In this document: positions 1-16,815 of the stretch, piece by piece
Layout: each line of letters begins with the position of its first letter
Position numbering within the stretch: the stretch's first letter is position 1
NCBI GenBank assembly: GCA_041394945.1
Contig: JAWKHH010000005.1
Span: forward strand, 312,740 to 376,739
Direction of reading: 5' to 3'
Origin: Bryobacteraceae bacterium
GTDB taxonomy: Bacteria; Acidobacteriota; Terriglobia; Bryobacterales; Bryobacteraceae
DNA length: 64,000 bases
Program-made: the position numbers and the translations under genes
The notes under the pieces: generated by a model
Told to the model about the DNA's origin: nothing
Seen by the model: only the letters and a program-made list of their open reading frames with translations
The model's database searches: none

Positions 1-1661
1 GTGTAGCGGGTAGACGCCTGCACGCGGACCGGCGCCGACCCCGAGGGCGGAAGCTTTGTACTGCCGATCTTTACCTGATTCGCGCCGATCACCGACCAAT
101 GGAGCCGCGCTTCAGCGCCGGGCGTCACCGTCGTGGGGCTCACCTCGAACGACAGGATCTTCGGGCCGGCGGTTACCGGCTGGCGCTCATCGTTGGTCTG
201 GTCGTTGGGACGATCCTCGTCGTTCGAAGACTCCTCTTCCTTTCGTTGCTGGTTTCGCGGCGCCACGGTAACCCGCAACACGCGTTCCTGACGTCCAGCC
301 TTGTTCATGGCGACGAGCGAATAGGCGGTGGTTTCCTCCGGGCTCACCGACATCGTTCCGGAAGACGGCTGCTCAAGCCCGCCGACATACACCTGCGTCG
401 CGTCCTTGACGGACCATGTGAGCTTCGCGCTTTCCCCGGCCCGCACCGTTTCGCGGTCGGCGCGGAAATACTCGATCGAGGCCGGCGCTCCGCCGCCGCG
501 GGGCCAGAAGACCGCCGCGGCCACCAGCGCGAACACAACGCCCGCCACGGCCGCTAGCCACTTTGGAAATCCTCCCACCGGCGCCGGTTTTGGCGGCGCC
601 GGACTTGGTAGGGGCGGCTTGGTGGGCGACGGCTCGGTCTTGGCCACCGGCGGCGCCGGTTTCGGATCAGGCGCCGGCGCGGGTGCGGCCGCCTCCCCGC
701 GCAGAGCGCGCTGAAAGGCCTCCATGGTCGCGAACCGCTTCTCCGGCTCGAGCGCCAGCGCCTGCAGGAGGGCGCGCTCCTGCATGTCGCCGATCCCGGC
801 GCCGAGCGAAGACGGCGTGGGCAGCGGATGACGGTAGCGGTCCGGCGCGGGCAGCGGCATTTCGCCGGTGATGGATCGATACATGGTCGCCGCGACGGCG
901 TAGACGTCGGTCCAGGGGCGTTGGTCGCCGCGCGTTTCGTACTGCTCCGGCGGCGCGAACCCGGGTTTGAGGATCACCGAAATATTGCGGCTCTGCTGGC
1001 CCATCGAGTAGCGGGCCGCGCCGAAGTCGATCACCTTGATCTGCCCGCTCCACAGCACGAAAATATTATCGGGACTGATGTCGCGATGCAGCAGCCCGGC
1101 CTTGTGGACTTCACGAAGGGCGTCCATCACCGGCGTCATCACGCGCAGCGCCATATCCCAGTTCACCTTGCCGCCGGAGCGCGCCAGGAACTCCTCGAAG
1201 GTGATGCCGTCCAGATGTTCCAGCACCATATAGGCGGTGCCGTTGGCCGGGAAGTAGTTCTTCACGGCGACGATGTTCGGGTGATTCTCGAACTGCGCCA
1301 CTACGCGAGCCTCTTCGAGGTACCGCTCGAGGCCCCAGTCATAATCGTTGCGGACGTTCGGCGAGTGCGCGAATACCCGCGGATCGCCTGTGGCGCGCAC
1401 ACCGACTCCAGACGGGAAGTACTCCTTGATCGCGATACGGCGGGCGAGATTCAGATCCCAGCCGAGGTAGGTGATGCCGAACCCGCCGGCGCCCAGGCAG
1501 CGGCCCACCAGGTATTGCTCCTTGAGCACGAAGCCAGGGTCCAGGTACATCGTGGACTGCGCCGGGGACCCGTGCCGCCACTCGCACTTCGGGCACACAT
1601 CGCCCTCGCCAGTGAACTGCATGCATCCAAGACAAAGACCGTTTGGAATGGCAGCATCCAT
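1..1661 (-). CDS. Hanks-type Ser/Thr protein kinase with a TM helix and extracellular repeat domains; C-terminus runs off the window start
   Basis: The minus-strand frame is open from ATG 1661..1659 to position 1. It is absent from the ORF track because it has no in-window stop. Motifs read from the sequence: GxGxxG (LGAGGFGITY), IAIKEY, HRDISPDN, VIDFGAAR and APPEQY. A Pro-rich linker and a TM helix (WLAAVAGVVFALVAAAVF) follow, then two related ~90-aa repeats. A zinc-ribbon-like CxxC...CxxC lies at the extreme N-terminus. Confidence 0.75.
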   Translation of the reverse strand, partial: MDAAIPNGLCLGCMQFTGEGDVCPKCEWRHGSPAQSTMYLDPGFVLKEQYLVGRCLGAGGFGITYLGWDLNLARRIAIKEYFPSGVGVRATGDPRVFAHSPNVRNDYDWGLERYLEEARVVAQFENHPNIVAVKNYFPANGTAYMVLEHLDGITFEEFLARSGGKVNWDMALRVMTPVMDALREVHKAGLLHRDISPDNIFVLWSGQIKVIDFGAARYSMGQQSRNISVILKPGFAPPEQYETRGDQRPWTDVYAVAATMYRSITGEMPLPAPDRYRHPLPTPSSLGAGIGDMQERALLQALALEPEKRFATMEAFQRALRGEAAAPAPAPDPKPAPPVAKTEPSPTKPPLPSPAPPKPAPVGGFPKWLAAVAGVVFALVAAAVFWPRGGGAPASIEYFRADRETVRAGESAKLTWSVKDATQVYVGGLEQPSSGTMSVSPEETTAYSLVAMNKAGRQERVLRVTVAPRNQQRKEEESSNDEDRPNDQTNDERQPVTAGPKILSFEVSPTTVTPGAEARLHWSVIGANQVKIGSTKLPPSGSAPVRVQASTRY

Positions 1662-1663
1662 AT

Positions 1664-2908
1664 TCAGCCTGCTTCGAACATGTTATCCGGACTTCCGACG
1701 TAGAATCGGTCTCCGGGCTTGAGTTCTTCCCTGGCGCCTGGCTGGAGACGCCGGTTGCCGGCGGCGAAGAACGTCCCGTTCGAGGACCATAGATCCTCGA
1801 GCCAGACGCGGCCGGAGCTATCGCGGGTCACCTGACAGTGGCGTTTCGAGACCATGGCGGCATCGCCCGGGAAGACGAGATTCGCCGCGCCGGCGTCGCG
1901 CCCGAACACGCACGGGGCATCGCCGAGCGGAATCGCCTGGCCGCTGAAGGTTCCCTGCAGTCCGCGCAGCGATCTGCTCTTTGGGATCGCGGCGGGAGGC
2001 GGAGCCGGGGATGGAGCCGGTGGCCTTGGCGGCGGCACGGGTCCCGGGCGAACCACCAGCGACGTTACCTTGCGGGCGGCGTTCGACACACCCACGCGCG
2101 CGCGGCGGTTGGATGCCGTGAACAGCAGTGCGCCCATCGCCGCCAGAAGTGTGATCGCCTGCCCGCCGATCATCCATCCCGGCATGCCGGGCGCCGCCGT
2201 GGTTTGGGTAGCGGCCACGCACGCGCTCGAAGCTCTCTTGTACTTGATCCCGAGCCGGTCCAGTTCCGGCATGAGCTCGTCGGTTTGAATCGAGAGATGA
2301 ATGGCCTCCACGCCACGGACACTCGCGGTATTGATGCCCAGCACTTCGCCGCACTGGTTAAACAGCGGACCGCCGGAGTTGCCGGAGTTCACGGCGGCAT
2401 CCACCTGCAGAAACCCGATATGGGGAAGGCCCTCGGCGCCGCCGCGCAGCAGCTTACTCACCACGCCTTTGTTCACCGAGGGGTCCAGCGCCGAAGCCGC
2501 ATCGCTCACGAAGATCGACCCGCCCGGGAAGCCCGCCACCCAAACGTCCTGGCCGGGCTTGACGAACTCGCGCGCGGAAAGCACCACCGGCGATACCGGC
2601 AGTGGGCGCGCCAGCTCGAGCACGGCGAGATCCTTGGCCGGTTCATTCCAGAGCACCTTGGCCGGAATGTATTTTTGGCCGGCGATCGTCACAGTCGGCT
2701 GGATCGCCATGTACTGAGCGTTCTTGCAGCAGACATGATTGTTGGTGACGACGTGGCGGTCCGTGACGGGAAAGCCGCTTCCGCTCGCGCGGCTCCGGCC
2801 GGCTCGCAGCTCGATGTAGGCTGTGTGGCGGAGCATCTCGTCGACATCGGCCTGCGGCCATGCCGGCGCGGTCAGCATGGCGAGCGCGAAGAATCGGGCG
2901 AGGCTCAT
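1664..2908 (-). CDS. Trypsin-like (S1 family) serine protease with a TM segment and a C-terminal FHA domain
   Basis: From ORF 1664..3214(-); the true start is MSLARFF with a signal peptide, and GGAG lies upstream. Protease motifs: TNNHV, DLAVLEL, GNSGGPLF. The C-terminal FHA domain reads GRD...SKRHCQV...SSNGTF. The start ATG overlaps the upstream stop as ATGA. Confidence 0.7.
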   Translation of the reverse strand: MSLARFFALAMLTAPAWPQADVDEMLRHTAYIELRAGRSRASGSGFPVTDRHVVTNNHVCCKNAQYMAIQPTVTIAGQKYIPAKVLWNEPAKDLAVLELARPLPVSPVVLSAREFVKPGQDVWVAGFPGGSIFVSDAASALDPSVNKGVVSKLLRGGAEGLPHIGFLQVDAAVNSGNSGGPLFNQCGEVLGINTASVRGVEAIHLSIQTDELMPELDRLGIKYKRASSACVAATQTTAAPGMPGWMIGGQAITLLAAMGALLFTASNRRARVGVSNAARKVTSLVVRPGPVPPPRPPAPSPAPPPAAIPKSRSLRGLQGTFSGQAIPLGDAPCVFGRDAGAANLVFPGDAAMVSKRHCQVTRDSSGRVWLEDLWSSNGTFFAAGNRRLQPGAREELKPGDRFYVGSPDNMFEAG

Positions 2909-3885
2909 CGCCTGGCTCCGTCCGCGGCGCCCGTGCTGTCGGCCGCCGCCGCCGGCGGAACAGGCGCGGCGTAGACGTAGCGCCAATACCCGGCGCCGAG
3001 AAGCGCAGCCAGCAGGAAAGCGGCCACGGCGGCCACGGCCCACCGGCGTTTCGGCGCGGCCGGCGGGACTACGCCGGCGGTTTCCGGAGCGGGCTCGGCC
3101 GGGGGCTCGGGCTCCCGCGACTCGACGCTGCCGTATGCCGAAAGCGCGAGGATCGTTACGTTGTCCTGATTCTCGCGGCCACGAGCGAGCGCTTCGCCCA
3201 CGAGCCGCTCGCATTGCTCTTGCGGCGGCCCGGTCATGTACGACAGCATTTCGTCGGCGGTGAGCGTCCGATAGAGTCCGTCGGTGGCGAGGTATACCGT
3301 GTCGCCGGCGTCCAGCCGCAGCGGTCCGTTCAGGTCCACATGCGGGATCGATTCGGCGCCGACGTGCGAGATGAGCGCTTCCCGCTGCGGGTCCGACAGA
3401 GCTTCGGCAGCCGAGAGCTGGCCCGCGGCGACGCGTGCGTCGAGAATGGTCGCGTAGTTGTGGACGGCGTTGAGCTGCGAAAGCTGGCCGCCGCGCAGGA
3501 GCAGCAGCGCGCTGTCGCCGACCGAGACCCAGTGGAGTTCGTCGGCGTGGAGCACCGCGGCCACGATCGTGGTTCCCATCTCCCCGCCCGCGCCGGATTC
3601 CAAGGCCAAGGCGTAGACAGCGGCGTTGGCTTCATGCACGGACCGGTAGAGCGCATCGCGAATCGGCTCGTCGGTATTCTTCCGCCGATAGGCATTCAGG
3701 AACGCGGCGGCCGCCGTTCGCGAGGCTTCGCCGCCGTGCTGCATACCGCCCATGCCGTCGGCGAGCACGGCCGCCACGCCGCCATGCGACACGAACGCCT
3801 CATCGCCGGTGTTCGAGAAACAGAAGGCGTCCTGCTGCTGGGATCGGCGGCCGATGTGCTGCGCGTTTCCGAAAGCGTAGGTCAA
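2905..3885 (-). CDS. PP2C-family Ser/Thr protein phosphatase, C-terminally membrane-anchored
   Basis: ORF 2905..3885(-). PP2C motifs: FCFSNTGDEAF...VLADGMGG and DNVTILAL. There is a C-terminal TM helix. It sits 4 nt from the upstream FHA gene. Confidence 0.8.
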   Translation of the reverse strand: MTYAFGNAQHIGRRSQQQDAFCFSNTGDEAFVSHGGVAAVLADGMGGMQHGGEASRTAAAAFLNAYRRKNTDEPIRDALYRSVHEANAAVYALALESGAGGEMGTTIVAAVLHADELHWVSVGDSALLLLRGGQLSQLNAVHNYATILDARVAAGQLSAAEALSDPQREALISHVGAESIPHVDLNGPLRLDAGDTVYLATDGLYRTLTADEMLSYMTGPPQEQCERLVGEALARGRENQDNVTILALSAYGSVESREPEPPAEPAPETAGVVPPAAPKRRWAVAAVAAFLLAALLGAGYWRYVYAAPVPPAAAADSTGAADGARR

Positions 3886-3889
3886 AGGC

Positions 3890-4429
3890 TCAATCCCACT
3901 GAAATTCCTCGCCGACGAGCGCCACCAGCATCAACTGGGTCTTGCCGAGCCGGACGACGTCGCGATGCTTCATCACTCCCGGCGAGTGGACCACCTGGCC
4001 GTTCAGATAAACCAAACCGGAGGCTTCGCCCGGGATCAGCCAAAACTGTTTCTCCTCCGGCTCAAAGGCGACCGCGGCATGGCGGACGCGAGAGACGGTG
4101 GGATCGGAACCGACCGAGACATCCATCGACGGGTCTCGCCCGATGAAGTTCTTCTCCGTGCGGAGGCGATAGTCGCGCCCGCGGTCCGGTCCCTCGATGC
4201 AGACGAGCCAGCCGACGACGGGCTGAATGCCGAGTTGTTCCTCCACCAGCCGCACGGTCTTGCCGGCCAATGGCGCCGCCGGCGCGCCGCCGGCAGCCGG
4301 TGGACCCTCCGCGGGCGGCCGGATCGCCACTGTCCTTCCCGGAGGAGGCATATCGATCGGCGTCGCGCAGTAGGGGCACGCGCTGTTCTTCTGCTCATCG
4401 AAGAAATGTCCGGACGCGCATTGAATCAT
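3890..4429 (-). CDS. FHA-domain protein with an N-terminal zinc ribbon
   Basis: ORF 3890..4429(-). The N-terminus reads CASGHFF...CPYC (zinc ribbon). The C-terminal FHA reads IGRDPSMDVSV...VSRVHA...NGQVV. Confidence 0.7.
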   Translation of the reverse strand: MIQCASGHFFDEQKNSACPYCATPIDMPPPGRTVAIRPPAEGPPAAGGAPAAPLAGKTVRLVEEQLGIQPVVGWLVCIEGPDRGRDYRLRTEKNFIGRDPSMDVSVGSDPTVSRVRHAAVAFEPEEKQFWLIPGEASGLVYLNGQVVHSPGVMKHRDVVRLGKTQLMLVALVGEEFQWD

Positions 4430-4434
4430 CGATC

Positions 4435-5262
4435 TTATTTCCTTTCTTGTGCCGCGGGGGCGCGGTTGTTGTCGCGATTGAACTGTTCCCGGAACTCCGG
4501 CGCGGGCTCGAAGGAGAGCTTCATGTTTCCATCGAGTTTAGCCGTTCCCACCATGACGGCCGTCTTCTCCGCCGCGATTGAGGTGGATGGCAGACGGTAG
4601 AATCCGCCCTCGTGATTCAGCGCCGCCGGCCCGATCTGCGCCGGTTGCGGGTTTCCGTTCGCCGCCAGGAACTTGTAGTAGACCTCCACCTCGCCGCCCG
4701 TCGGGAAGTCACGCACCATCCAGGATTCGAAGCACGGGCCACGGCCGCAGTTGGTGTAGATATCACCTTTGAAGTAGATGCCCTGGGCCTTGGTGGCGTC
4801 CACGGCGGGCTGCCCCTTGGCGCGGTTCTGGCCGCGCCAACGCAGATAGATGTCGACGTTGTGGTTCCGCGAGAGCCATTGCATGGTCACCACCATCGGC
4901 CGGCGCAACCGCAGGTCGCGGTTTTCGTCCTGGAGCTTCTTGGCCTCGCGCTTGGATTGCTCCAGCCGGTTGAGCGCATCGGCGAGCTGGCGCTGCTTCC
5001 GGCGGAATTCCTCGAGCAGTTTCTCGAGCTGCTTGCTGAGATCGGGGCCGGCGTTCGGCAGGTTCCGCAGCTTCTCCTGGAGATCCTTCAGTTCCCGCAT
5101 CGCCTGCTGGTACTGCTGCTCCACATCTTTCGCCGAGGCGCCGCCCGGATGCCAGTAGGGGAGCAGAGTGATCATCAGGAAGCAGAACGCCCCCAGCGCC
5201 CCGCACAGGATATCGAGCAGCGAGACGTTGAAGATGTTCACCTCGCGCCGGCGCGACTTCAT
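4435..5262 (-). CDS. ExbD/TolR-like membrane protein with an extended coiled-coil periplasmic region (275 aa)
   Basis: ORF 4435..5262(-). The N-terminal TM segment EVNIFNVSLLDILCGALGAFCFLMITLL resembles the ExbD/TolR signature (NLTPLIDV...). A ~90-aa heptad-rich coiled coil (LKDLQEKLRNL...KKLQDENRDLRL) and a ~120-aa globular domain follow. The gene immediately follows the MotA/TolQ-like gene. Confidence 0.5.
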   Translation of the reverse strand: MKSRRREVNIFNVSLLDILCGALGAFCFLMITLLPYWHPGGASAKDVEQQYQQAMRELKDLQEKLRNLPNAGPDLSKQLEKLLEEFRRKQRQLADALNRLEQSKREAKKLQDENRDLRLRRPMVVTMQWLSRNHNVDIYLRWRGQNRAKGQPAVDATKAQGIYFKGDIYTNCGRGPCFESWMVRDFPTGGEVEVYYKFLAANGNPQPAQIGPAALNHEGGFYRLPSTSIAAEKTAVMVGTAKLDGNMKLSFEPAPEFREQFNRDNNRAPAAQERK

Positions 5263-5265
5263 CGC

Positions 5266-6024
5266 CTAGCCCTCGTACAGCCGGTTGATGAGGTTGCGAA
5301 GCGTGTAGTCGCCGGCCCGATTCACCGCCGATTCTTCCTGCTCCTGAACCAGTTGCATGATAAACACGAGGATCGCGCTTTGCACCAGCGCCACCATCGT
5401 CGTATCGAAGCCGACGCCGAGCGTCCGCGCCACCTGCTTGATGTCGAGATCGCCGGTGGACTGGCCGGCTTCCGAGAGCGACGCTCCCAACGAGTACACC
5501 GTGCCGATGAAGCCCAGGGTCGGCACCATCCACGCGATAAACCGCACGATCCCGTAGCGCAACTCCACCCGGTTGGCGATCAGCTCCAGGTGGCTGTTCA
5601 TCACGGTGGCCGTCTGGTCCGTGGACCGGCTTGCCTGAAACTGCAGAATGCTGAGGTTGATCAGCGAAGGCAGATAGCCGCGCTCGCCGTCGAAAGCGGC
5701 GGCCACGGCATGCCGGATGGGCGGCAGGTCCCGCGAGCGCAGCACAGTCTCCTCATCCTCGGGAAGGAATCGCCGCCCGAACAGCGCGGTCTCATGAACG
5801 CCCGCCCGCCACCGGATGAACAGTTCGCCCAGGCCGATGAAGAACAGGATGTGCATCAGGTTCTGAATGGTGAGCGGGTAGGGGAACTTGGTGGAAGGGT
5901 AGTCGAGAAGCAGCACCGCCGCGCGTCCCGGAAGGATCAGCGTACCGAGAGCGATGAAGGCGATCGCGGCCAGCACCGCGAGGATCATGACTTGCTTGCG
6001 ATCGGGGGAGTGCCAGAAATTCAT
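5266..6024 (-). CDS. MotA/TolQ/ExbB-family proton-channel protein
   Basis: From ORF 5266..6084(-); start taken at MNFWHSP (ATG 6024..6022). It has three TM helices. The C-terminal signature GFIGTVYSLGASL...GFDTTMVALVQSAILVFI is typical of TolQ/ExbB. Confidence 0.75.
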   Translation of the reverse strand: MNFWHSPDRKQVMILAVLAAIAFIALGTLILPGRAAVLLLDYPSTKFPYPLTIQNLMHILFFIGLGELFIRWRAGVHETALFGRRFLPEDEETVLRSRDLPPIRHAVAAAFDGERGYLPSLINLSILQFQASRSTDQTATVMNSHLELIANRVELRYGIVRFIAWMVPTLGFIGTVYSLGASLSEAGQSTGDLDIKQVARTLGVGFDTTMVALVQSAILVFIMQLVQEQEESAVNRAGDYTLRNLINRLYEG

Positions 6025-6026
6025 GG

Positions 6027-6461
6027 TTAGCGTCCACAGGTCCCGCACTGGGAGCCCATCGCCTTGATGGCGCCGCAGGCGCACCGCACAAGACGGGTGC
6101 TGTCGGAGAATTCGCGCGGCGCTTTCTGAATGGGTTGGGGTTTTACGGGTTGGGGTTTGACCGGCGCCGTCTGGTCCAGCGGGCGCGCCGGGTCCTTGCG
6201 GCGGATCGCCGCGGCGAGCGCGTCCACGGTGATGGCCACATTGCCGAATTTCACCTGGTCGTTGGGAAGGAGGCGTTCCTGGCGAACGGGTTGTTCGGCG
6301 CCACCGCGAATCAGGAACGTACCGTTGCTCGAATTGCAGTCCGTGATCAGGATCTGGCCGCCGTCATCGACGGTCGCTTCGGCGTGGAAGCGGGAGACAG
6401 ACGGGTCGGCAATCGGAATATCGGCGGCAGGGTCGCGGCCGATCTTATATGTCTTTGCCAT
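6027..6461 (-). CDS. FHA-domain protein with a C-terminal zinc ribbon
   Basis: From ORF 6027..6560(-); start at MAKTYKIGRD with GGAGG 8 nt upstream. The FHA reads IGRD...SRFHA...SSNGTF. The C-terminal zinc ribbon reads CACG...CGTCG. This is the first gene of the operon; 350 nt of non-coding DNA lies upstream. Confidence 0.7.
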   Translation of the reverse strand: MAKTYKIGRDPAADIPIADPSVSRFHAEATVDDGGQILITDCNSSNGTFLIRGGAEQPVRQERLLPNDQVKFGNVAITVDALAAAIRRKDPARPLDQTAPVKPQPVKPQPIQKAPREFSDSTRLVRCACGAIKAMGSQCGTCGR

Positions 6462-6812
6462 TCGTCCCGCTCCTCCCAGAATGCGGCTAGTCCCTCTCGA
6501 CTCGCACGTTGGCCCGACCGGCAACCAAGTCGGCGGCCGGGTCAGCGGCGAACCCGGCAAAAACCTATTGAATCATGGAGTCGCGGCTCATTCAAGCGAG
6601 GTTGTACTGGGCTTGCCGGACTATGCCGCTGACGCGCGGCGAATCATCCGGCAGATCAGCTTCACCCCGAGCATAGGAAACGCCGGCGACGGTGCGGCCG
6701 CGAAGTTCCCGCCTGGCCGCCGGCAGCGAGCGCGTCAATACCGTGCGGAAATGGATTGGAGGGCGTCGCGGTGCAGGTCTGCCGGTTGCCGGTGGAGGCG
6801 ATCAGGCGGAAT

Positions 6813-7361
6813 TCAGTGAACCATGATCGGGACTGTCGCCACCGTCTCGTCCCACATGATCTTCAGCGTACCCTCGCCGCCGCCTGCCGTCGAGATGTCG
6901 ATCGTCAACTGTTCGGCCGCCGGGCCGCGGGCGACCTTCATTCCGGTCCGGCCGTAGTCCATGGCTTGGTCGTATTTGAATGCGCCCCACTGTTTCACGG
7001 TCTTATTGAGAATGAGCGTCCACTCCTTCTCGTTCGGGATCGTGAAGAGGCTGTAGCTGCCCTTGGTGACATGCATGTCGCCGATCATCAGGTCGCCTTC
7101 GGTTTCGAGGATCGTGGCTTCGTCGGCGCCGGTGCGCCACACTTTGCCCCACGGCTCCAGTCCTCCGAAAATGGTGCGTCCTTTCTTAAACGGACGCCCG
7201 TAGGTGATGGTGATCTTCTTGCCGCCCACGGTCCAGGACTTGGTTTCGTGCGGGCTGGCGCGCTGCTTCTGAGCATGGGCCGGTCCGGGCGACACCAACA
7301 GGGTGAGCGCGCCCACGGCGAGAAAGGCGACGCCGGCGGCGAGACGGATTGTAGCATTCAT
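6813..7361 (-). CDS. Secreted protein, DUF2911-like
   Basis: ORF 6813..7361(-). Signal peptide, then GKVWRTGADEAT and ITITYGRP motifs recalled for DUF2911. The family assignment is from memory only. Confidence 0.5.
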   Translation of the reverse strand: MNATIRLAAGVAFLAVGALTLLVSPGPAHAQKQRASPHETKSWTVGGKKITITYGRPFKKGRTIFGGLEPWGKVWRTGADEATILETEGDLMIGDMHVTKGSYSLFTIPNEKEWTLILNKTVKQWGAFKYDQAMDYGRTGMKVARGPAAEQLTIDISTAGGGEGTLKIMWDETVATVPIMVH

Positions 7362-7374
7362 GACTTCACATCCT

Positions 7375-8364
7375 TCAAGACTTTACATCCTTTCCCCGAG
7401 CGAGCAGGGAATCTTCAAAATGAAATTCGACCGGCGGCAGCGTATGGTTACGCAGGCGCCAGCGGTATGTTTCGGCCAGACCCTCGGCGAACGGCGTGGC
7501 CTGGAACCCGAGCACGCGCCGCGCCTTCCGAGTCGACATCGTGATCGGCGGCATGTCGTAGTAGAAGCCGAAGTAGAGCGGCGGCTGCATCACCTGCCCA
7601 CCCGCCGCTGCGATGATGCGGCGGGGCACGCGCACAAGACGCGGTTCGATGTCCGCGGCGGCGGCAAACGCCCGCACCGCCTGGAGCTGGGTGATCGCGG
7701 CCGGCTCGGCGATGTTGAACGCCTGGCCCGCGGCGCCGGGAGTGGTCAGCGCGGCCATGCACGCGGCGACGATGTCGTGTACGTAGACGAACTGCATCAA
7801 CCGGCGGCCGTCGCCGGGGATGATGATTGGCCGGCCGGCGCGGAGCCGGTCCCAGAAGAACTGCTCGCGGTAAAAGGGATTCTCCGGACCGTAGACGTAT
7901 GGCGGACGCAGCGTCACCGCCGGCAACCCCTGGCGGCGATGCATGCGGAACAAGGCGCGTTCGCTTTCGGCCTTGTTGCGGACGTATCGGTCGGGGTGAT
8001 CGGCCGGGGCCAGCGCGTCGCGCTCGGAATGGTCGAGCCCGTCGCCATAGGCGGCGACGCTCGAAATGAAGATGTAACGCGTGAGCGAATCGCCGCAGGC
8101 GCGCGCCGTGCCGGCGACCTGTTCGGCGGTGGTGCCGTGTTCCCAGTCGTAGACGTTGTCGAAAACGGCGTCGAAGCGGCGGGAGCCGATGGCGGCGCGG
8201 ACGGCGGCCGGATCGTTGCGGTCCGCCTGCAGATTTCCCACGCCGCGCCCCAGCCGGTGCGATCGCTTGCGGTGCAGGACGGTGACGTCGTGACCGGCCG
8301 CGCGCAACGCCTTGACGAGCGCGCGCCCGATGAACAGGGTGCCGCCGATCACGAGTGTCTTCAT
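7375..8364 (-). CDS. NAD-dependent epimerase/dehydratase (SDR family)
   Basis: ORF 7375..8364(-). Rossmann motif VIGGTLFIGRAL; the SDR catalytic Tyr-Lys region is present. Confidence 0.8.
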   Translation of the reverse strand: MKTLVIGGTLFIGRALVKALRAAGHDVTVLHRKRSHRLGRGVGNLQADRNDPAAVRAAIGSRRFDAVFDNVYDWEHGTTAEQVAGTARACGDSLTRYIFISSVAAYGDGLDHSERDALAPADHPDRYVRNKAESERALFRMHRRQGLPAVTLRPPYVYGPENPFYREQFFWDRLRAGRPIIIPGDGRRLMQFVYVHDIVAACMAALTTPGAAGQAFNIAEPAAITQLQAVRAFAAAADIEPRLVRVPRRIIAAAGGQVMQPPLYFGFYYDMPPITMSTRKARRVLGFQATPFAEGLAETYRWRLRNHTLPPVEFHFEDSLLARGKDVKS

Positions 8365-11502: not shown

Positions 11503-12117
11503 TCACGGTGTACGCAGGCGGCGAACGACGTCTTCATCGCACAGAGAGTAGTGGCGGACGTTCCAGGAGTAGATCGCCTCTACTTTTGCCTTGAGGGCGC
11601 AATGCGCCAGCATCGAATCGTAGATGCCGCCTCCGACAACTCCTCGGGCGGCTGAATGTTCGAGCGCATCGACGTATTCCTCGCCGGTAAGCGCGATGAT
11701 GGAAAGGCGCTCGCAGATGCTTCCGATAAAGCGCTCGCGGATGCTTCCGATAAAGAGGATCGCCTGCTCGCTGCTGATGCGATGCTTACCGGGCATGCGA
11801 GTCAGCGTTGAGTACACCTCGGCGAGACTATGTGCTCCGCAGCAGCCAGTTGCCCTATCGAACTGGATGAATCGGGCTCTGCGGATCTCTTCCAATACTT
11901 CATCGGTTGCGGAGGCGGGGAGGGGTTGCCCAGCGTAAAGAACCCAGACGCCGTGTTCCTTCCTGAGCGGACCTGTTCCTCGCACAGGACGGAGGGTTAT
12001 CTGTTCTCCGGCACTCTCGATCTCTAGGGAGTCGCCCGGCTCCAAATGTCGCGCTTCACGCAAAGGCTTGGGAATCACTACGCGGCCGGCTTTGTCGATG
12101 ATGAGACGGGCGCTCAT
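11503..12117 (-). CDS. Single-polypeptide fusion of an AbrB/MazE-type antitoxin domain and a PIN-domain (VapC-like) nuclease
   Basis: ORF 11503..12117(-), 204 aa. The N-terminus LIIDKAGRVVIPKPLRE is an AbrB/SpoVT swapped-hairpin. The C-terminal ~130 aa carry PIN acidic residues (FDRATG, AEVYSTLTR, IYDSMLAHCA, SWNVRHY). Confidence 0.55.
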   Translation of the reverse strand: MSARLIIDKAGRVVIPKPLREARHLEPGDSLEIESAGEQITLRPVRGTGPLRKEHGVWVLYAGQPLPASATDEVLEEIRRARFIQFDRATGCCGAHSLAEVYSTLTRMPGKHRISSEQAILFIGSIRERFIGSICERLSIIALTGEEYVDALEHSAARGVVGGGIYDSMLAHCALKAKVEAIYSWNVRHYSLCDEDVVRRLRTP

Positions 12118-13614: not shown

Positions 13615-16600
13615 TCAGTCGCGGGCGATGGGTTGTTCGCGATTGGCTGTGGGCTGGCCGGCCACGTCCACTACACGATCCAGGACGCGGCGCGTGGGCC
13701 GCTCGTCCATCTCGTCGTCCGTTCCCGGCTTCTCCGGCTCGGGCGTCATCCCCACGGGCTTCGCGCGTTCGAGAACCGGGCGGATCGTCGGCACCAATTG
13801 GCGGAAGATCTGGACGGCGAGCGCGCTGGTGAAGGAGTGCGACTCGGCTTCCTTGCCCGGCACATAGGCGGTGATGGTGCCATAGAAGCGGTCGCCGATG
13901 ACAAACACGAACGCAGCCGTCCGGCTCATCACGCGCGATCCGATGAGGGCGCCGTTCGATGCATAGCTTTCGAGGCGATTGTCGCCGGTGCCCGTCTTGC
14001 CGCCCAACTGCAGGATGCGGCCGTCTGAGAGCTTGACGCTCTGGAAGGCGCGGCGCGCCGTGCCCTGCTCCACGACGCCGAACATCTCCTGGCGGACCAC
14101 GGCGGCGACGGCAGCCGGCAGGATCCGCTCCGGCCGAGCGGGTTTGTGCCGGAGGACGGTTTCCATGGGTGTGGCGCGGGCGAAATGGAGCCGCTCGAGC
14201 TTCATCACCGGATAGCGCACGCCGCCGTTCTGGATGATGCCGGCGAGTTCGGCGAGGGCCGCCGGGTTATCACCGGAACTGCCGATGGCGGTGGCGTAGG
14301 AAGGCGTCAGCGTCGGGAACGGATAGCCGTGCCGCCGCCAGGTTTCGCCGACGCCCTTGAAGGCGTCCACTTCGAGGAGGATCTTGATGCGAAGGTCCTG
14401 CGCGTGCTTGTGCTTCGGCCGGAAGAGCCATTTGTAGACTTCCTGCCGCTCGTGCTCGCTTGCCCGGCTCGCCTCTTCGAAGGTAGCGTCCTTGTGTTCG
14501 AGGAGATAGCGCAGCAGCCAGAGTTCGAGCGGGTGGACGCGGGCGAGGTAGCCGCGGTCAGCGAGGTCGAACTTATCGGGGGCGTAGCGATCGTAGAGCT
14601 TTTCCAGGTCCACGCGGGCGAGGGCTTCGTCCGGGAGCTTGGCCTCGAGAAAGTCGAGCATGCCTTCGAGGTTGCCCTCGGGGAGCACGGTGCGGTAGGC
14701 CACGGCGAGGCGGTAGGGCGTGGGGCGCATCTTGCGCGAAAGGATCGCCAGGGCTTCTTCGGCGGGCTTTCCCTTGTAGCGGCGATAGAATCGCAGTAGG
14801 AATTCGCGACCTTCACGGTCGGCGAATCGCTCGAGGTACTCTTTCCGGCCTGGATGATACACGTCGTAGAGCAGCGCGGGAGTTACTCCGGGAAGCCGGA
14901 ACTGGTGGTAACTCACGATATCGCGCATCATGCGGATGAAGACGAGGTTCGTGGAATTGCGGAGCGCCTCGCGCACGGTGAGGAACCTGCCGTTGTCGCC
15001 GCCGTTGAAGTTCGAGAAGTAGTGCAGCCCGCCGCCGGTAAAGAAGCCTTCGCCGGGAGAGCCGGAGTATTTCCGCGTCATCGCCGCTTCGAGAATGCCG
15101 GCCAGGGACCGGTCTCCAGTGGCCGCCAGGTATTCGATGGTCCACTGTGTCAGGGGGTCGGCGGGCTCGCTCCTCGGATCCACCGCGCTCTTGCGAGAAT
15201 AGGTATCCCGGAGGCCGGCGATCAGCTCCAGGTAGGTGACCAGCGTGCGCAGCTTCGCCGTCGACCCCAACTCGATCCTCGTGCCTTCGTTGAAGTTGAG
15301 CGGCTGATCCAGGTTGTCGGCCTGCACGCGAAGGAAGTTCGCCCCTTCGCCGGCCTCGTAGAGATTGAAGCTGTAAATCACGGAATCGAGCCCGCCGTCG
15401 GGAAGCATCTGCCTGCCGAGGAGCCCGGCCTTGGCCGCATAGCCGCGGTCGGCGAGTTTCGTCAGGACGTTGGTCGCGCCCTGCACGGCGACGCGATCGA
15501 GGCTCGTATGGGCGGTGAGGTCCAGCCGGTCGAGTTCGTAGATGCTCGGGATACCGAGCATCCCGAGCAGCGTGGCGCGGACGGCATCTGTGGCCTTGCG
15601 TTCGTAGAACGGGGCCGGCACTGCCTCCGGCGCCTTCGTGCGAAAGTTCAGCTCGACCTCCAGCGCGACGTCCCGGAGACGGGGGGAGATGACGCCGGAC
15701 TCACCGAGCAGACGCAGATAATTGTCGACGCGCTGGTTGAGCGCTTCGCGGTTCCGCTGCAGGTAGAACGTCGGCCGGTTTGCTGCGAGCAGAAGGCTGA
15801 GCGCGCGACGGTAGGCCCGCGCCCGTTCCCGTTCGCGCTTGCGGTCCAACTTGCCATCAAGCGTCCCGGCGCCGGCCTCGCGGGCGGTGAGCAGCCGGTT
15901 CGTTTCCGCGAAATCGGCGCCGAACCACGCCCAAAGGCCGTCGCCCAGGCCGGACACCTCGCCGTAGCCGGGGAGCGAGGCGAGCGGCAGGGAGTTGATA
16001 TAGTCGCTGGCGATCTGGCGGCGGGTTTCGTAGGTGGTCTCGCCCAACTGATACGCCCGTAGCGACGCTGAAATCATCTGGCGGAACTTATCGCCGGCGC
16101 CTTGCGTGCGGCCTTCCGGCGAATGGCGCAGCTTTTCGATCTGCGTGGCGAGCGTGCTTCCGCCGCCGGCGCCAGTGCCGCCGACGAGTTGCTTGCGGCT
16201 TTGATCGAACACCGCGCGGGCGAGGCGATCCCATTCGACGGCCGGATTGCGGTATGGCGTCGACACTTCGAGCATGTCCCGGTTCTCCACGAACAGCAGG
16301 CTGTTCACCACCAGCGGGGGAATCCAGTCGAAATCGGGGTAGGTTCGCTGCGGGAAGCGCGCCGTGAAAAGCGGCCGGCCAAGCGTATCGAGGATTTCGA
16401 GGCCGGCCTGCGACTTCTCGCGGTAGGTGGGAAACAAACCCACGAGCGTCATCTTGCGGAGCCAATCCGACGAACGCGCCTGCGCCTCCACGGAGAAGCC
16501 GCGCTCGCCGAGACGGTTCGTCCACTCGTCGAGCCGCGCGTAGCCGAGCCGTTGATCGTACGGGCCTTCGCCCGCCCACGGCAAGGACGCAGACCCCGGC

Positions 16601-16815
16601 TCCACGCGGTAGCTCATCCGCCGCGCCGCCGCCGCGAACAACCGAGACTGCAGGTACGACGAACGCGCCTCCGCGACCACGCCGGCCATCAACGCCGCCG
16701 CGGCGAGGCTTCCGAAAATAACTTTTTTAGAACCCAGCCGGAGCGGACCCCTCTTGCCGGCTGGCCTCGGAACGGCCGCATCCTCAGCGGGCCGATCCTC
16801 TGGTTGGAAAAGCAT
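13615..16815 (-). CDS. Class A penicillin-binding protein (GT51 transglycosylase plus transpeptidase), unusually long at 1066 aa
   Basis: ORF 13615..16815(-). N-terminal TM anchor. GT51 motif GGSTLATQIEKL. Transpeptidase motifs STAK (SxxK), STN (SxN) and KTGTG. Large insertions separate the domains. Confidence 0.7.
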   Translation of the reverse strand: MLFQPEDRPAEDAAVPRPAGKRGPLRLGSKKVIFGSLAAAALMAGVVAEARSSYLQSRLFAAAARRMSYRVEPGSASLPWAGEGPYDQRLGYARLDEWTNRLGERGFSVEAQARSSDWLRKMTLVGLFPTYREKSQAGLEILDTLGRPLFTARFPQRTYPDFDWIPPLVVNSLLFVENRDMLEVSTPYRNPAVEWDRLARAVFDQSRKQLVGGTGAGGGSTLATQIEKLRHSPEGRTQGAGDKFRQMISASLRAYQLGETTYETRRQIASDYINSLPLASLPGYGEVSGLGDGLWAWFGADFAETNRLLTAREAGAGTLDGKLDRKRERERARAYRRALSLLLAANRPTFYLQRNREALNQRVDNYLRLLGESGVISPRLRDVALEVELNFRTKAPEAVPAPFYERKATDAVRATLLGMLGIPSIYELDRLDLTAHTSLDRVAVQGATNVLTKLADRGYAAKAGLLGRQMLPDGGLDSVIYSFNLYEAGEGANFLRVQADNLDQPLNFNEGTRIELGSTAKLRTLVTYLELIAGLRDTYSRKSAVDPRSEPADPLTQWTIEYLAATGDRSLAGILEAAMTRKYSGSPGEGFFTGGGLHYFSNFNGGDNGRFLTVREALRNSTNLVFIRMMRDIVSYHQFRLPGVTPALLYDVYHPGRKEYLERFADREGREFLLRFYRRYKGKPAEEALAILSRKMRPTPYRLAVAYRTVLPEGNLEGMLDFLEAKLPDEALARVDLEKLYDRYAPDKFDLADRGYLARVHPLELWLLRYLLEHKDATFEEASRASEHERQEVYKWLFRPKHKHAQDLRIKILLEVDAFKGVGETWRRHGYPFPTLTPSYATAIGSSGDNPAALAELAGIIQNGGVRYPVMKLERLHFARATPMETVLRHKPARPERILPAAVAAVVRQEMFGVVEQGTARRAFQSVKLSDGRILQLGGKTGTGDNRLESYASNGALIGSRVMSRTAAFVFVIGDRFYGTITAYVPGKEAESHSFTSALAVQIFRQLVPTIRPVLERAKPVGMTPEPEKPGTDDEMDERPTRRVLDRVVDVAGQPTANREQPIARD

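Follow-up and report, generated by a model that had tools for sequence, protein, structure and literature searches.

A candidate ion-driven motor of the TolQ/ExbB class encoded with kinase, PP2C and FHA-domain genes in Acidobacteriota and other bacterial phyla

Why should a divergent relative of the TolQ/ExbB channel proteins be encoded, along with a large single-pass partner, amidst genes for serine/threonine phospho-signalling? The question is raised by a seven-gene operon at the left end (positions 1-6461) of a 64,000-nucleotide stretch of contig JAWKHH010000005.1 (assembly GCA_041394945.1, positions 312,740 to 376,739; henceforth the window), which comes from a metagenome-assembled genome (MAG) of the Bryobacteraceae (Acidobacteriota), a soil acidobacterium. 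Motors of the MotA/TolQ/ExbB superfamily, with a 5:2 subunit composition, power flagella, nutrient import, outer-membrane maintenance, gliding, type IX secretion and Zorya defence. We propose, with a probability that we put at roughly 0.5, that the second and third genes of this operon, g2 and g3, code for subunits A and B of an ion-driven clade of such 5:2 motors of the TolQ/ExbB class, a clade that is new to the literature as far as we could find and that is coupled to a phosphothreonine switch.

The genes, g1 to g7 in the order of transcription, are all co-directional on the minus strand (Table 1). Their models were derived by listing the open reading frames (ORFs), translating the left end and checking the start codons, and agree with a preliminary description of the locus, made from the letters alone, in which the seven minus-strand genes were said to overlap by 4 nt or to be separated by 2-5 nt: the successive spacings from g1 to g7 are 2, 3, 5, 4, -4 (an ATGA overlap) and 2 nt. 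A promoter and terminator scan of 1-7400 yielded no signal above shuffled expectation. As for the domains that had been assigned by eye, hidden Markov models (HMMs) confirm six of the calls, whereas the label of g3 as "ExbD-like" falls away, as no ExbD or TolR HMM matches it.

The candidate A subunit g2 matches the Pfam family MotA_ExbB (PF01618) with an E-value of 4.7e-10 and 39.7 bits, against a gathering cut-off of 22.9, and is predicted to have the TolQ/ExbB fold of that family by a single-chain AlphaFold2 (AF2) model, the type of model that underlies the structural statements throughout. The fold was recognized by a long TM1 helix that passes into a helical cytoplasmic domain, with a transmembrane hairpin at the C-terminus. 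Its last two transmembrane (TM) helices carry invariant polar residues, namely T175 in the motif 'PTLGFIGTV', which aligns to 'PAMGMIGTL' of PomA, and D207 and T209 in 'GFD.TM'; these presumably take part in the ion path in a manner equivalent to those of the known channels. Two features set g2 off from ExbB: one more TM helix at the N-terminus (residues 12-30) and a periplasmic loop, LLDYPS..FPYP.TIQN, that is conserved. It was rejected both as a TolQ equivalog (14 bits against an NCBIfam cut-off of 221) and as a PomA equivalog (13.7 bits against 341). At the sequence level it is by far the most conserved component of the operon: over 84 loci its homologues have a median identity of 64.7% to the window protein, with a minimum of 55% and a range of 55-90% across phyla, against medians of 33-49% for the remaining six proteins. 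The start of g2 is ambiguous: the ATG at 6024 leaves a 2-nt gap to g1, and the in-frame GTG codons at 6048 and 6084 would overlap that gene. Many homologues have ~20 additional, poorly conserved N-terminal residues.

The product of g3, which directly follows g2 in 79 of 80 related loci, usually at a spacing of -4 to +30 nt, appears to be a B subunit of an unfamiliar kind. It begins with a basic N-terminus (MKSRRRE), followed by a single TM helix (residues 13-31 by hydropathy); from these features its stalk and head are predicted to be periplasmic. In the AF2 model (mean predicted local distance difference test score, pLDDT, 87.3), residues 11-33 form the TM helix, 44-118 a coiled coil and 120-255 an all-beta sandwich, for which TerD proteins are the nearest solved folds. 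Thus, the coiled-coil periplasmic extension that had been read from the sequence finds support in the model. In a 45-member alignment, residues 1-35 are almost invariant (consensus MKARNREVNIFNMSLLDILCGALGAFCFMM), with 17 invariant positions among the first 28 residues and with Asp17 of the TM helix invariant in all 45 sequences; the remainder is free in sequence and length. Homologues accordingly range from 195 to 893 aa, with variable stalk length and head, the latter being made up of Sel1-like repeats in one case.

The suggestion that g3 is an "enlarged ExbD" did not survive closer scrutiny. The ExbD/TolR model PF02472 matches neither the whole protein nor its N- or C-terminal pieces even at E-values up to 10, and sequence queries of the PDB, by the family profile as well as by a 41-aa consensus of the N-terminus, returned coiled-coil noise only. 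Profile-profile comparison using hhalign gave a probability of 0.2% for a relationship to ExbD/TolR, a weak test in that the ExbD/TolR alignment held three sequences (two from E. coli and one locus ORF). The best 150 matches of an exhaustive search with the g3 profile all lie inside the family, offering no bridge to ExbD, and a word-indexed search with the N-terminal consensus retrieved short gene fragments only. As it also has no compact alpha/beta periplasmic domain, membership in the ExbD/TolR family was rejected. The family comprises 225 word-indexed matches, all hypothetical proteins, and 670 clusters at 50% identity with E-values up to 1e-10; by sequence comparison it is separate and unannotated. 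Hence, g3 has the topology, the TM aspartate and the gene position of a B subunit, and stands outside the ExbD/TolR family.

How far does the association with signalling genes extend? A pattern scan over one genome per species detected a relative in at least 570 genomes from the Acidobacteriota, Verrucomicrobiota, Binatota, Bdellovibrionota and Proteobacteria, and the A subunits form more than 1,500 clusters at 90% identity. Carriers include Bryobacterales, Terriglobia, Vicinamibacterales, Chthoniobacterales/Udaeobacter, Binataceae, Bdellovibrionales and "delta" and gamma proteobacterial MAGs, as well as the cultured Paludibaculum fermentans. Gene neighborhoods were tallied from six-frame ORFs of the 80 best of the at least 570 loci, labelled by phmmer with the window proteins; these crude labels agree with precomputed Pfam annotation in four loci, and, as the 80 are the best-scoring ones, divergent contexts are under-sampled. 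In 47 loci, spanning the classes of Acidobacteriota, Binataceae and "delta" genomes, the order is FHA-A-B-FHA-PP2C-(Trypsin-TM-FHA)-(second small PP2C)-kinase. The second PP2C_2 gene is found in most relatives and is missing from the window operon. The kinase is the last gene of the operon in the relatives, with unrelated genes after it and flanks that differ between genomes. The same order in dozens of genomes, at protein identities of 30-65%, places this arrangement far beyond chance; hence, a fortuitous juxtaposition of motor and signalling genes is ruled out by the conservation data. The preliminary description had made its case depend on gene order being kept in related genomes, and in the 47 loci it is. 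It had also noted that tolA, tolB, pal, tonB and a motB with an OmpA domain are absent nearby, and would have been refuted had g2 and g3 been an ordinary TolQR or ExbBD pair with tolA or tonB just outside; it stands on both counts, with no such gene in the 10 kb upstream of the operon or beyond the kinase in relatives. More broadly, those 10 kb hold no Tol, Ton, Mot, flagellar or gliding genes, neither the window flank nor any conserved position in the 80 related loci encodes TolA, TonB, TolB or Pal, and a canonical ExbD occurs as a single gene in 1.3 Mb of related loci.

A second thread that ties the operon together is a zinc ribbon, which can be read directly in three of its proteins: at the C-terminus of g1 (RCACGAIKAMGSQCGTCG), at the N-terminus of g4 (CASGHFFDEQKNSACPYC) and at the N-terminus of g7 (CLGCMQFTGEGDVCPKC). 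Each is kept in the relatives: 'VRC.CG[AS][IV]K...CP.C' in 43 of 45 g1 homologues encoded just ahead of the MotA-like gene, 'C..GH[FY][FY]D..KH..CP[WY]C' in 44 of the 47 genes after g3, and 'LC.GCM...CP.CG[YW]' in 36 of 39 kinase orthologues. When used to search the PDB, the ribbon profile found rubredoxin-like knuckles only and did not retrieve the structure of the GltJ ribbon. The g4 ribbon aligns with that at the N-terminus of a protein encoded by the third gene of verrucomicrobial loci (RIRCSCGRVYDP.KH..CPECG), and by this alignment the two are homologous. Thus, a ribbon begins the product of the gene after B both in its FHA form (the 44 loci above) and in a form with a TM helix and a beta-helix (~24 verrucomicrobial loci and one gammaproteobacterial locus).

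The signalling proteins themselves conform to a generic triad of Hanks kinase, PP2C and FHA domains: as judged from sequence, all have matches above the Pfam cut-offs (Pkinase 97.5 bits; PP2C_2 56.2; FHA 58.8, 33.9 and 49.7) and intact motifs. Their best NCBIfam matches, namely Stp1 for g5, Stk1 for g7 and FhaB/FipA for the FHA domains, are all under the equivalog cut-offs; for g5, the match is to the Stp1/IreP PP2C model at an E-value of 3.6e-39. The phosphothreonine-binding motifs GR, SxxH and NG are readable in the FHA domains of g1 and g6, and neither g1 nor g4 has a TM helix by hydropathy. The FHA domain of g4 (residues ~96-162) reads 'SRVRH', i.e., S-x3-H as against the canonical S-x2-H of g1 and g6, and its binding may be different or phosphate-independent. 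In g5, the metal-binding motifs DGMGG, ATDG and DN are readable, and its hydropathy-predicted helix at residues 282-300 points to a membrane-bound PP2C. The kinase g7 combines an N-terminal ribbon with a kinase domain (~50-330; motifs AIK, HRDISPDN and DFG readable), a Pro/Thr-rich linker, a TM helix (368-386 by hydropathy), which argues for a receptor-type kinase, and periplasmic repeats; orthologues at full length have 744-887 aa. The repeats (residues ~390-553, window 1-560) are ~75 residues long (e.g., IEYFRADRETV...LRVTV and ILSFEVSPTTV...) and have an Ig-like look; no Pfam or NCBIfam model matches them.

The preliminary description had further pictured an FHA-tethered protease. In g6, Pfam detects Trypsin_2 (E-value 8.6e-25, residues ~40-200) and FHA (5.1e-13, 334-405), the catalytic triad is in place (His in TNNHV, Asp in KDLAVL and Ser in GNSGGP), and hydropathy indicates a signal peptide (1-19) and a TM helix (246-264) followed by an Arg-rich, positive-inside RR. 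Taken together, the signal peptide, the TM helix and its Arg-rich flank place the protease in the periplasm and the FHA domain in the cytoplasm. This architecture upholds the claim, with the qualification that the component is optional, being present in ~29 of the 47 full loci. In some Bryobacterales, a vWA-FHA protein of ~480 aa, encoded between the g4 homologue and the PP2C gene (Table 1), parallels the Trypsin-TM-FHA design.

Several variants of the module throw light on what is constant in it. In Verrucomicrobiota and one gammaproteobacterial MAG, the A-B pair occurs without the FHA/PP2C/kinase set, and in 27 such loci g3 is followed by a third gene, the stop and start codons usually overlapping. 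Its product, of ~673 aa, runs from an N-terminal zinc ribbon through a TM helix and a Pro/Ser linker to a right-handed beta-helix (PF13229, E-value 2.5e-38); the beta-helix is NosD-like and the topology is reminiscent of TonB/TolA. This kinase-free form and the shared ribbon suggest that the constant core of the clade is A plus B plus a zinc-ribbon protein. Further, in one Chthoniobacter genome the g3 homologue (893 aa) is itself fused at its C-terminus to the beta-helix that other loci encode separately, a Rosetta-stone fusion that would place the beta-helix in the periplasm alongside the g3 head. In Binataceae and "delta" MAGs, there are two tandem g3 paralogues of ~195 aa each, which share the invariant TM segment and have short coils and unlike beta-sandwich heads. 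The B subunit might here be a heterodimer of the two, and the presence of two B paralogues fits a dimeric axle. Finally, the plasmid pRlBT01d of Rhizobium leguminosarum BT01, a 1.33-Mb megaplasmid whose record is unannotated in PLSDB, carries an A subunit of 41% identity with a g3-like partner; the neighboring genes encode an FHA protein, two PP2Cs, kinases, among them one of 1180 aa with a PDZ domain, a signal-peptide-TM-FHA protein with a periplasmic domain and a secreted protein of 1610 aa that is rich in Gly and Asp and matches no Pfam family. This megaplasmid gave the only plasmid match, and phage sequences gave none.

Table 1. Genes of the operon, upstream ORFs of the window and variant features in related loci.
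Feature	Sequence	Coordinates	Strand	Description	Match
g1	window	6027-6461	-	144 aa, cytoplasmic; FHA and C-terminal zinc ribbon (residues ~124-143, 6030-6092)	Pfam FHA, E 7.2e-16
g2	window	5266-6024	-	252 aa from ATG 6024; candidate A subunit, divergent MotA/TolQ/ExbB-family channel protein	PF01618
g3	window	4435-5262	-	275 aa; B-subunit analogue: TM helix, predicted periplasmic coiled coil and beta-sandwich head	
g3, residues 1-35	window	5158-5262	-	N-terminal segment	
g3, residues 44-118	window	4909-5133	-	coiled coil (model)	
g3, residues 120-255	window	4498-4905	-	head (model)	
g4	window	3890-4429	-	cytoplasmic; zinc ribbon (1-24, 4358-4429), Pro-rich linker, FHA (96-162, 3944-4144)	Pfam FHA, E 4.3e-8
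g5	window	2905-3885	-	326 aa, TTG start; PP2C Ser/Thr phosphatase, C-terminal TM helix (282-300, 2986-3042)	PP2C_2, E 4.6e-15
g6	window	1664-2908	-	414 aa, bitopic; signal peptide, trypsin/HtrA-like protease, TM helix, Pro-rich linker, FHA	Trypsin_2 and FHA
g7	window	1-1661	-	truncated at the left end, at least 553 aa; receptor Hanks-type Ser/Thr kinase	Pkinase, E 1.1e-27
Upstream ORF	window	11503-12117	-	204 aa; residues 1-47 match the MazE/AbrB-type antitoxin fold	
Upstream ORF	window	13615-16815	-	1066 aa; unusually long, penicillin-binding-protein-like	
Beta-helix third gene	L022	11748-13769		example	
Beta-helix third gene	L002	10984-13005		example	
g3-beta-helix fusion (Chthoniobacter)	L048	10772-13453		893 aa	
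Tandem g3 paralogues	L085	10765-11358, 11419-12003		also in L073 and L088	
Tandem g3 paralogues	L084	2250-2843, 2887-3477			
vWA-FHA gene	L013	12168-13634		also in L035, L051 and L053	
vWA-FHA gene	L044	12254-13693			
Rhizobium variant, pRlBT01d	L089	155393-172061			

Briefly, the mechanism that we envisage is as follows. In the inner membrane, g2 would form a pentameric channel ring around a dimeric axle of g3, held at the center by the near-invariant TM helix with Asp17; the coiled-coil stalk and beta-sandwich head would deliver the mechanical output of the motor, which is probably driven by protons, in the periplasm. The rubredoxin-like ribbons might act as cytoplasmic docking modules of accessory proteins, being fused in the window lineage to the FHA domains of g1 and g4 and to the receptor kinase g7, with the ribbons and/or the FHA domains docking on the cytoplasmic face of the pentamer. 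Upon sensing a periplasmic signal, g7 would write phosphothreonine, most likely on the Pro/Thr-rich juxtamembrane linkers; the FHA domains of g1, g4 and g6 would read this mark and the membrane PP2C g5 would erase it. As a net effect, the motor would be switched or localized, and the periplasmic protease brought to it. We infer each of the following: the 5:2 stoichiometry, the use of protons, the docking of ribbons on the motor, which way the signal runs and what the physiological output is; that phosphorylation gates the motor is, as pure conjecture, plausible. There is a precedent for such docking in the myxobacterial Agl-Glt apparatus, where, according to PMC11761067, an AlphaFold model predicts that the FHA domain of GltG lies against the AglR pentamer on its cytoplasmic side, and GltJ has an N-terminal zinc ribbon. 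The output is most likely a process of the cell envelope; the periplasmic partners (beta-helix, protease, vWA and Sel1-like repeats) hint at an envelope or polysaccharide function, and polysaccharide or peptidoglycan handling, or adhesion, are guesses. Only tentatively, at somewhat less than even odds, do we extend this to a new class of ion-driven 5:2 rotary motors, which would carry interchangeable periplasmic tools on the axle stalk and, in many lineages, a eukaryote-like phosphothreonine clutch, whose mark would be written by the kinase, read by ring-bound zinc-ribbon-FHA adaptors and erased by the PP2C.

Certain observations weigh against a phospho-regulated motor. The 5:2 assembly is conjectural, with the models being of single chains only. 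No homology of g3 to ExbD, TolR or MotB is detectable with Pfam, NCBIfam, PDB sequence searches or hhalign, and the g2 family profile reaches solved PomA/MotA structures only at an E-value of ~0.4, over the 'P..G..GT' helix. A search of g2 for a Ser or Thr phospho-acceptor specific to the FHA-linked lineages found none: the cytoplasmic Thr93 and Ser134 are equally invariant in lineages without FHA. The Rhizobium variant has no zinc ribbons, which implies that ribbon docking is not the universal mode of coupling. Moreover, nothing in the locus data points to a target of the motor.

What else, then, might these genes encode? One answer, that they are an ordinary TolQR or ExbBD whose TolA or TonB is encoded elsewhere and which has signalling genes as chance neighbors, can draw on the fold of g2 and on the TolR-like motif 'E[IV]NI..LLD[IV]L' in the TM helix of g3 (by comparison with E. 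coli TolR). It is effectively refuted by the scores and profile comparisons given above for g2 and g3, by the rarity of canonical ExbD in the related loci, and by the linkage to FHA, PP2C and kinase genes, which is conserved in ~45 genomes and recurs in Rhizobium. Two further candidates were set aside: a flagellar stator of the MotAB/PomAB type, on account of the failing PomA score, the lack of an OmpA domain in g3 and of flagellar genes nearby, and the PpkA/PppA/Fha1 pathway of type VI secretion systems (T6SS), whose VI_FHA model scores 30.6 bits against a cut-off of 120 and of which no core T6SS genes are found in the operon or its flank. A different proposition inverts the direction of signalling: instead of generating force, the A/B complex could sense proton-motive force, ion flux or the state of the envelope and feed the kinase-phosphatase pair via the adaptors, with targets elsewhere. 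The signalling parts of the operon do far outnumber its effector parts, no outer-membrane partner is encoded in the loci or the upstream flank, and the extreme conservation of g2, including the periplasmic loop, is what one might expect of a sensor of a universal cue. We nonetheless think a sensor unlikely, since the verrucomicrobial pairs have no kinase, PP2C or FHA and come instead with a large periplasmic beta-helix, fused to B in one Chthoniobacter genome, which looks more like an output, and since the long variable stalk of B with its interchangeable head is typical of force-transmitting parts.

Two other known machines invite comparison as more specific alternatives. A conflict system of the Zorya type, in which a MotA-like membrane complex would register a disturbed envelope, with the kinase and protease as its effectors against phages, is brought to mind by a weak PADLOC match of g2 to ZorA (E-value 6.8e-5, 20 bits), by matches of the kinase to the PD-T4-6 and MADS models and of the protease domain to defence-associated trypsin models, and by the variable genes flanking the operon in related genomes. 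Yet the kinase and protease matches are generic, domain-level ones; g2 (252 aa) ends ~25 residues past its last TM helix and so has no counterpart of the cytoplasmic tail of ZorA; and PADLOC finds no ZorB, ZorC, ZorD or ZorE, with a ZorB-type peptidoglycan-binding domain also wanting. A gene order kept across whole orders of Acidobacteriota, an A subunit that is so similar across phyla, unlike the fast-evolving genes of defence systems, and the lack of matches on phages, with the sole plasmid match being on a ~1.3-Mb megaplasmid, render this quite improbable. We give as little credence to a surface-motility or adhesion motor related to Agl-Glt, for all that this is the only characterized TolQR-type motor with cytoplasmic FHA and zinc-ribbon modules, that GltG is the best NCBIfam match of the g1 FHA domain (E-value 1.7e-10), and that relatives of the operon carry vWA-TM-FHA proteins, a vWA adhesin, CglB, being part of Agl-Glt according to PMC9946355. 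The GltG match covers the FHA domain only, at 40 bits against a cut-off of 650, and GltJ reaches 13.5 against 450; the failure of the ribbon profile to retrieve the GltJ ribbon speaks against kinship too, as does the absence, in or near the 80 loci, of a TonB-C domain, of outer-membrane proteins of the GltA/B/H/K type and of AglZ/MglA. The view of the preliminary description that the module is none of the characterized Tol, Ton, Mot, Agl-Glt, T6SS threonine-phosphorylation or Zorya systems is thus in line with equivalog models that all fall far under their cut-offs.

Viewed as a motor coupled to a phosphothreonine switch, the system combines traits that are found apart in the known machines. 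With TolQR/ExbBD, it shares a B gene next to the A gene, coding for a single-pass protein with its N-terminus inside and an invariant TM Asp; it differs in the extra TM helix and periplasmic loop of g2, in the coiled coil and beta-sandwich of g3, in having no TolA, TonB, TolB or Pal, and in the FHA, PP2C and kinase genes inside the window operon. Agl-Glt likewise has a TolQR-class motor and accessory proteins with cytoplasmic FHA and zinc-ribbon modules, and its two unlike B subunits, AglQ and AglS, resemble the tandem g3 paralogues of Binataceae; however, its FHA domain and ribbon sit in TonB-like bitopic proteins with TonB-C, as opposed to the small soluble adaptors seen here, it has no kinase or PP2C, the ribbons are not detectably related, and the operon has none of the periplasmic and outer-membrane components of Glt. 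In GldLM/PorLM, going by the published GldLM structures, the subunit that lies inside the ring extends into the periplasm as a long dimeric stalk with beta-sandwich output domains. The stalk and head of g3 are alike in concept, with no relationship to GldM in PDB sequence and fold searches; further, GldL has two TM helices, whereas g2 is TolQ/ExbB-like, and the operon contains no genes of the type IX secretion system. In Zorya, it is the A subunit that bears the coil, as its cytoplasmic tail, and ZorB is the subunit that binds peptidoglycan; here, the predicted coil is periplasmic and belongs to B. On the signalling side, PknB/PstP/FhaA/FhaB and PpkA/PppA/Fha1 also bring together a receptor Hanks kinase, a membrane PP2C and FHA readers encoded with the machine. 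Those sets control RodA/PbpA or T6SS and not a motor of the TolQ/ExbB class; in contrast to them, every cytoplasmic component here has a zinc ribbon and two periplasmic enzymes or binders are FHA-anchored. PpkA also has a vWA domain, which recalls the periplasmic vWA domain in relatives of the operon.

The ten genes upstream of the operon comprise, first, those for a DUF2911 protein, an epimerase, a LytTR response regulator, a DUF362 protein and ribH, and then nusB, a MazE-like gene, an ORF without Pfam match, a sub-threshold amidohydrolase ORF and one for a class A penicillin-binding protein. In the MazE-like ORF, the 150 residues beyond the antitoxin-like segment have no Pfam match, and it might represent an antitoxin-toxin fusion or a pair of genes misread as a single ORF. 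The penicillin-binding-protein-like ORF matches a transglycosylase, and a transpeptidase only weakly and in part.

To what extent is this system new? The A-subunit superfamily and the logic of the signalling triad are already known. In the open full-text literature, though one may exist in subscription-only sources, we found no account of the operon, the g3 family or any MotA/ExbB motor with linked FHA, PP2C and kinase genes; nor does such an operon figure in a phylogenetic survey from 2025 that covers MotAB with its non-flagellar relatives, or in a study from the same year on periplasmic force transducers. Only a few machines make up the 5:2 motors, and each new member has revealed a new use of proton-motive force beyond the inner membrane. 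The clade proposed here is notable for being abundant in dominant, poorly studied soil phyla, for its unusually conserved A subunit and for a B subunit that belongs to no annotated family. Its fixed linkage to kinase, PP2C and FHA genes offers a concrete, testable case of bacterial Ser/Thr signalling controlling a membrane motor, for which the cultured carriers, Paludibaculum fermentans and, with its 41%-identical variant, Rhizobium leguminosarum BT01, make genetics possible. If a phosphothreonine clutch of the kind outlined above is indeed at work, this would be the first motor of the superfamily with a demonstrated built-in link to Ser/Thr phospho-signalling, and would serve a new function in the cell envelope.

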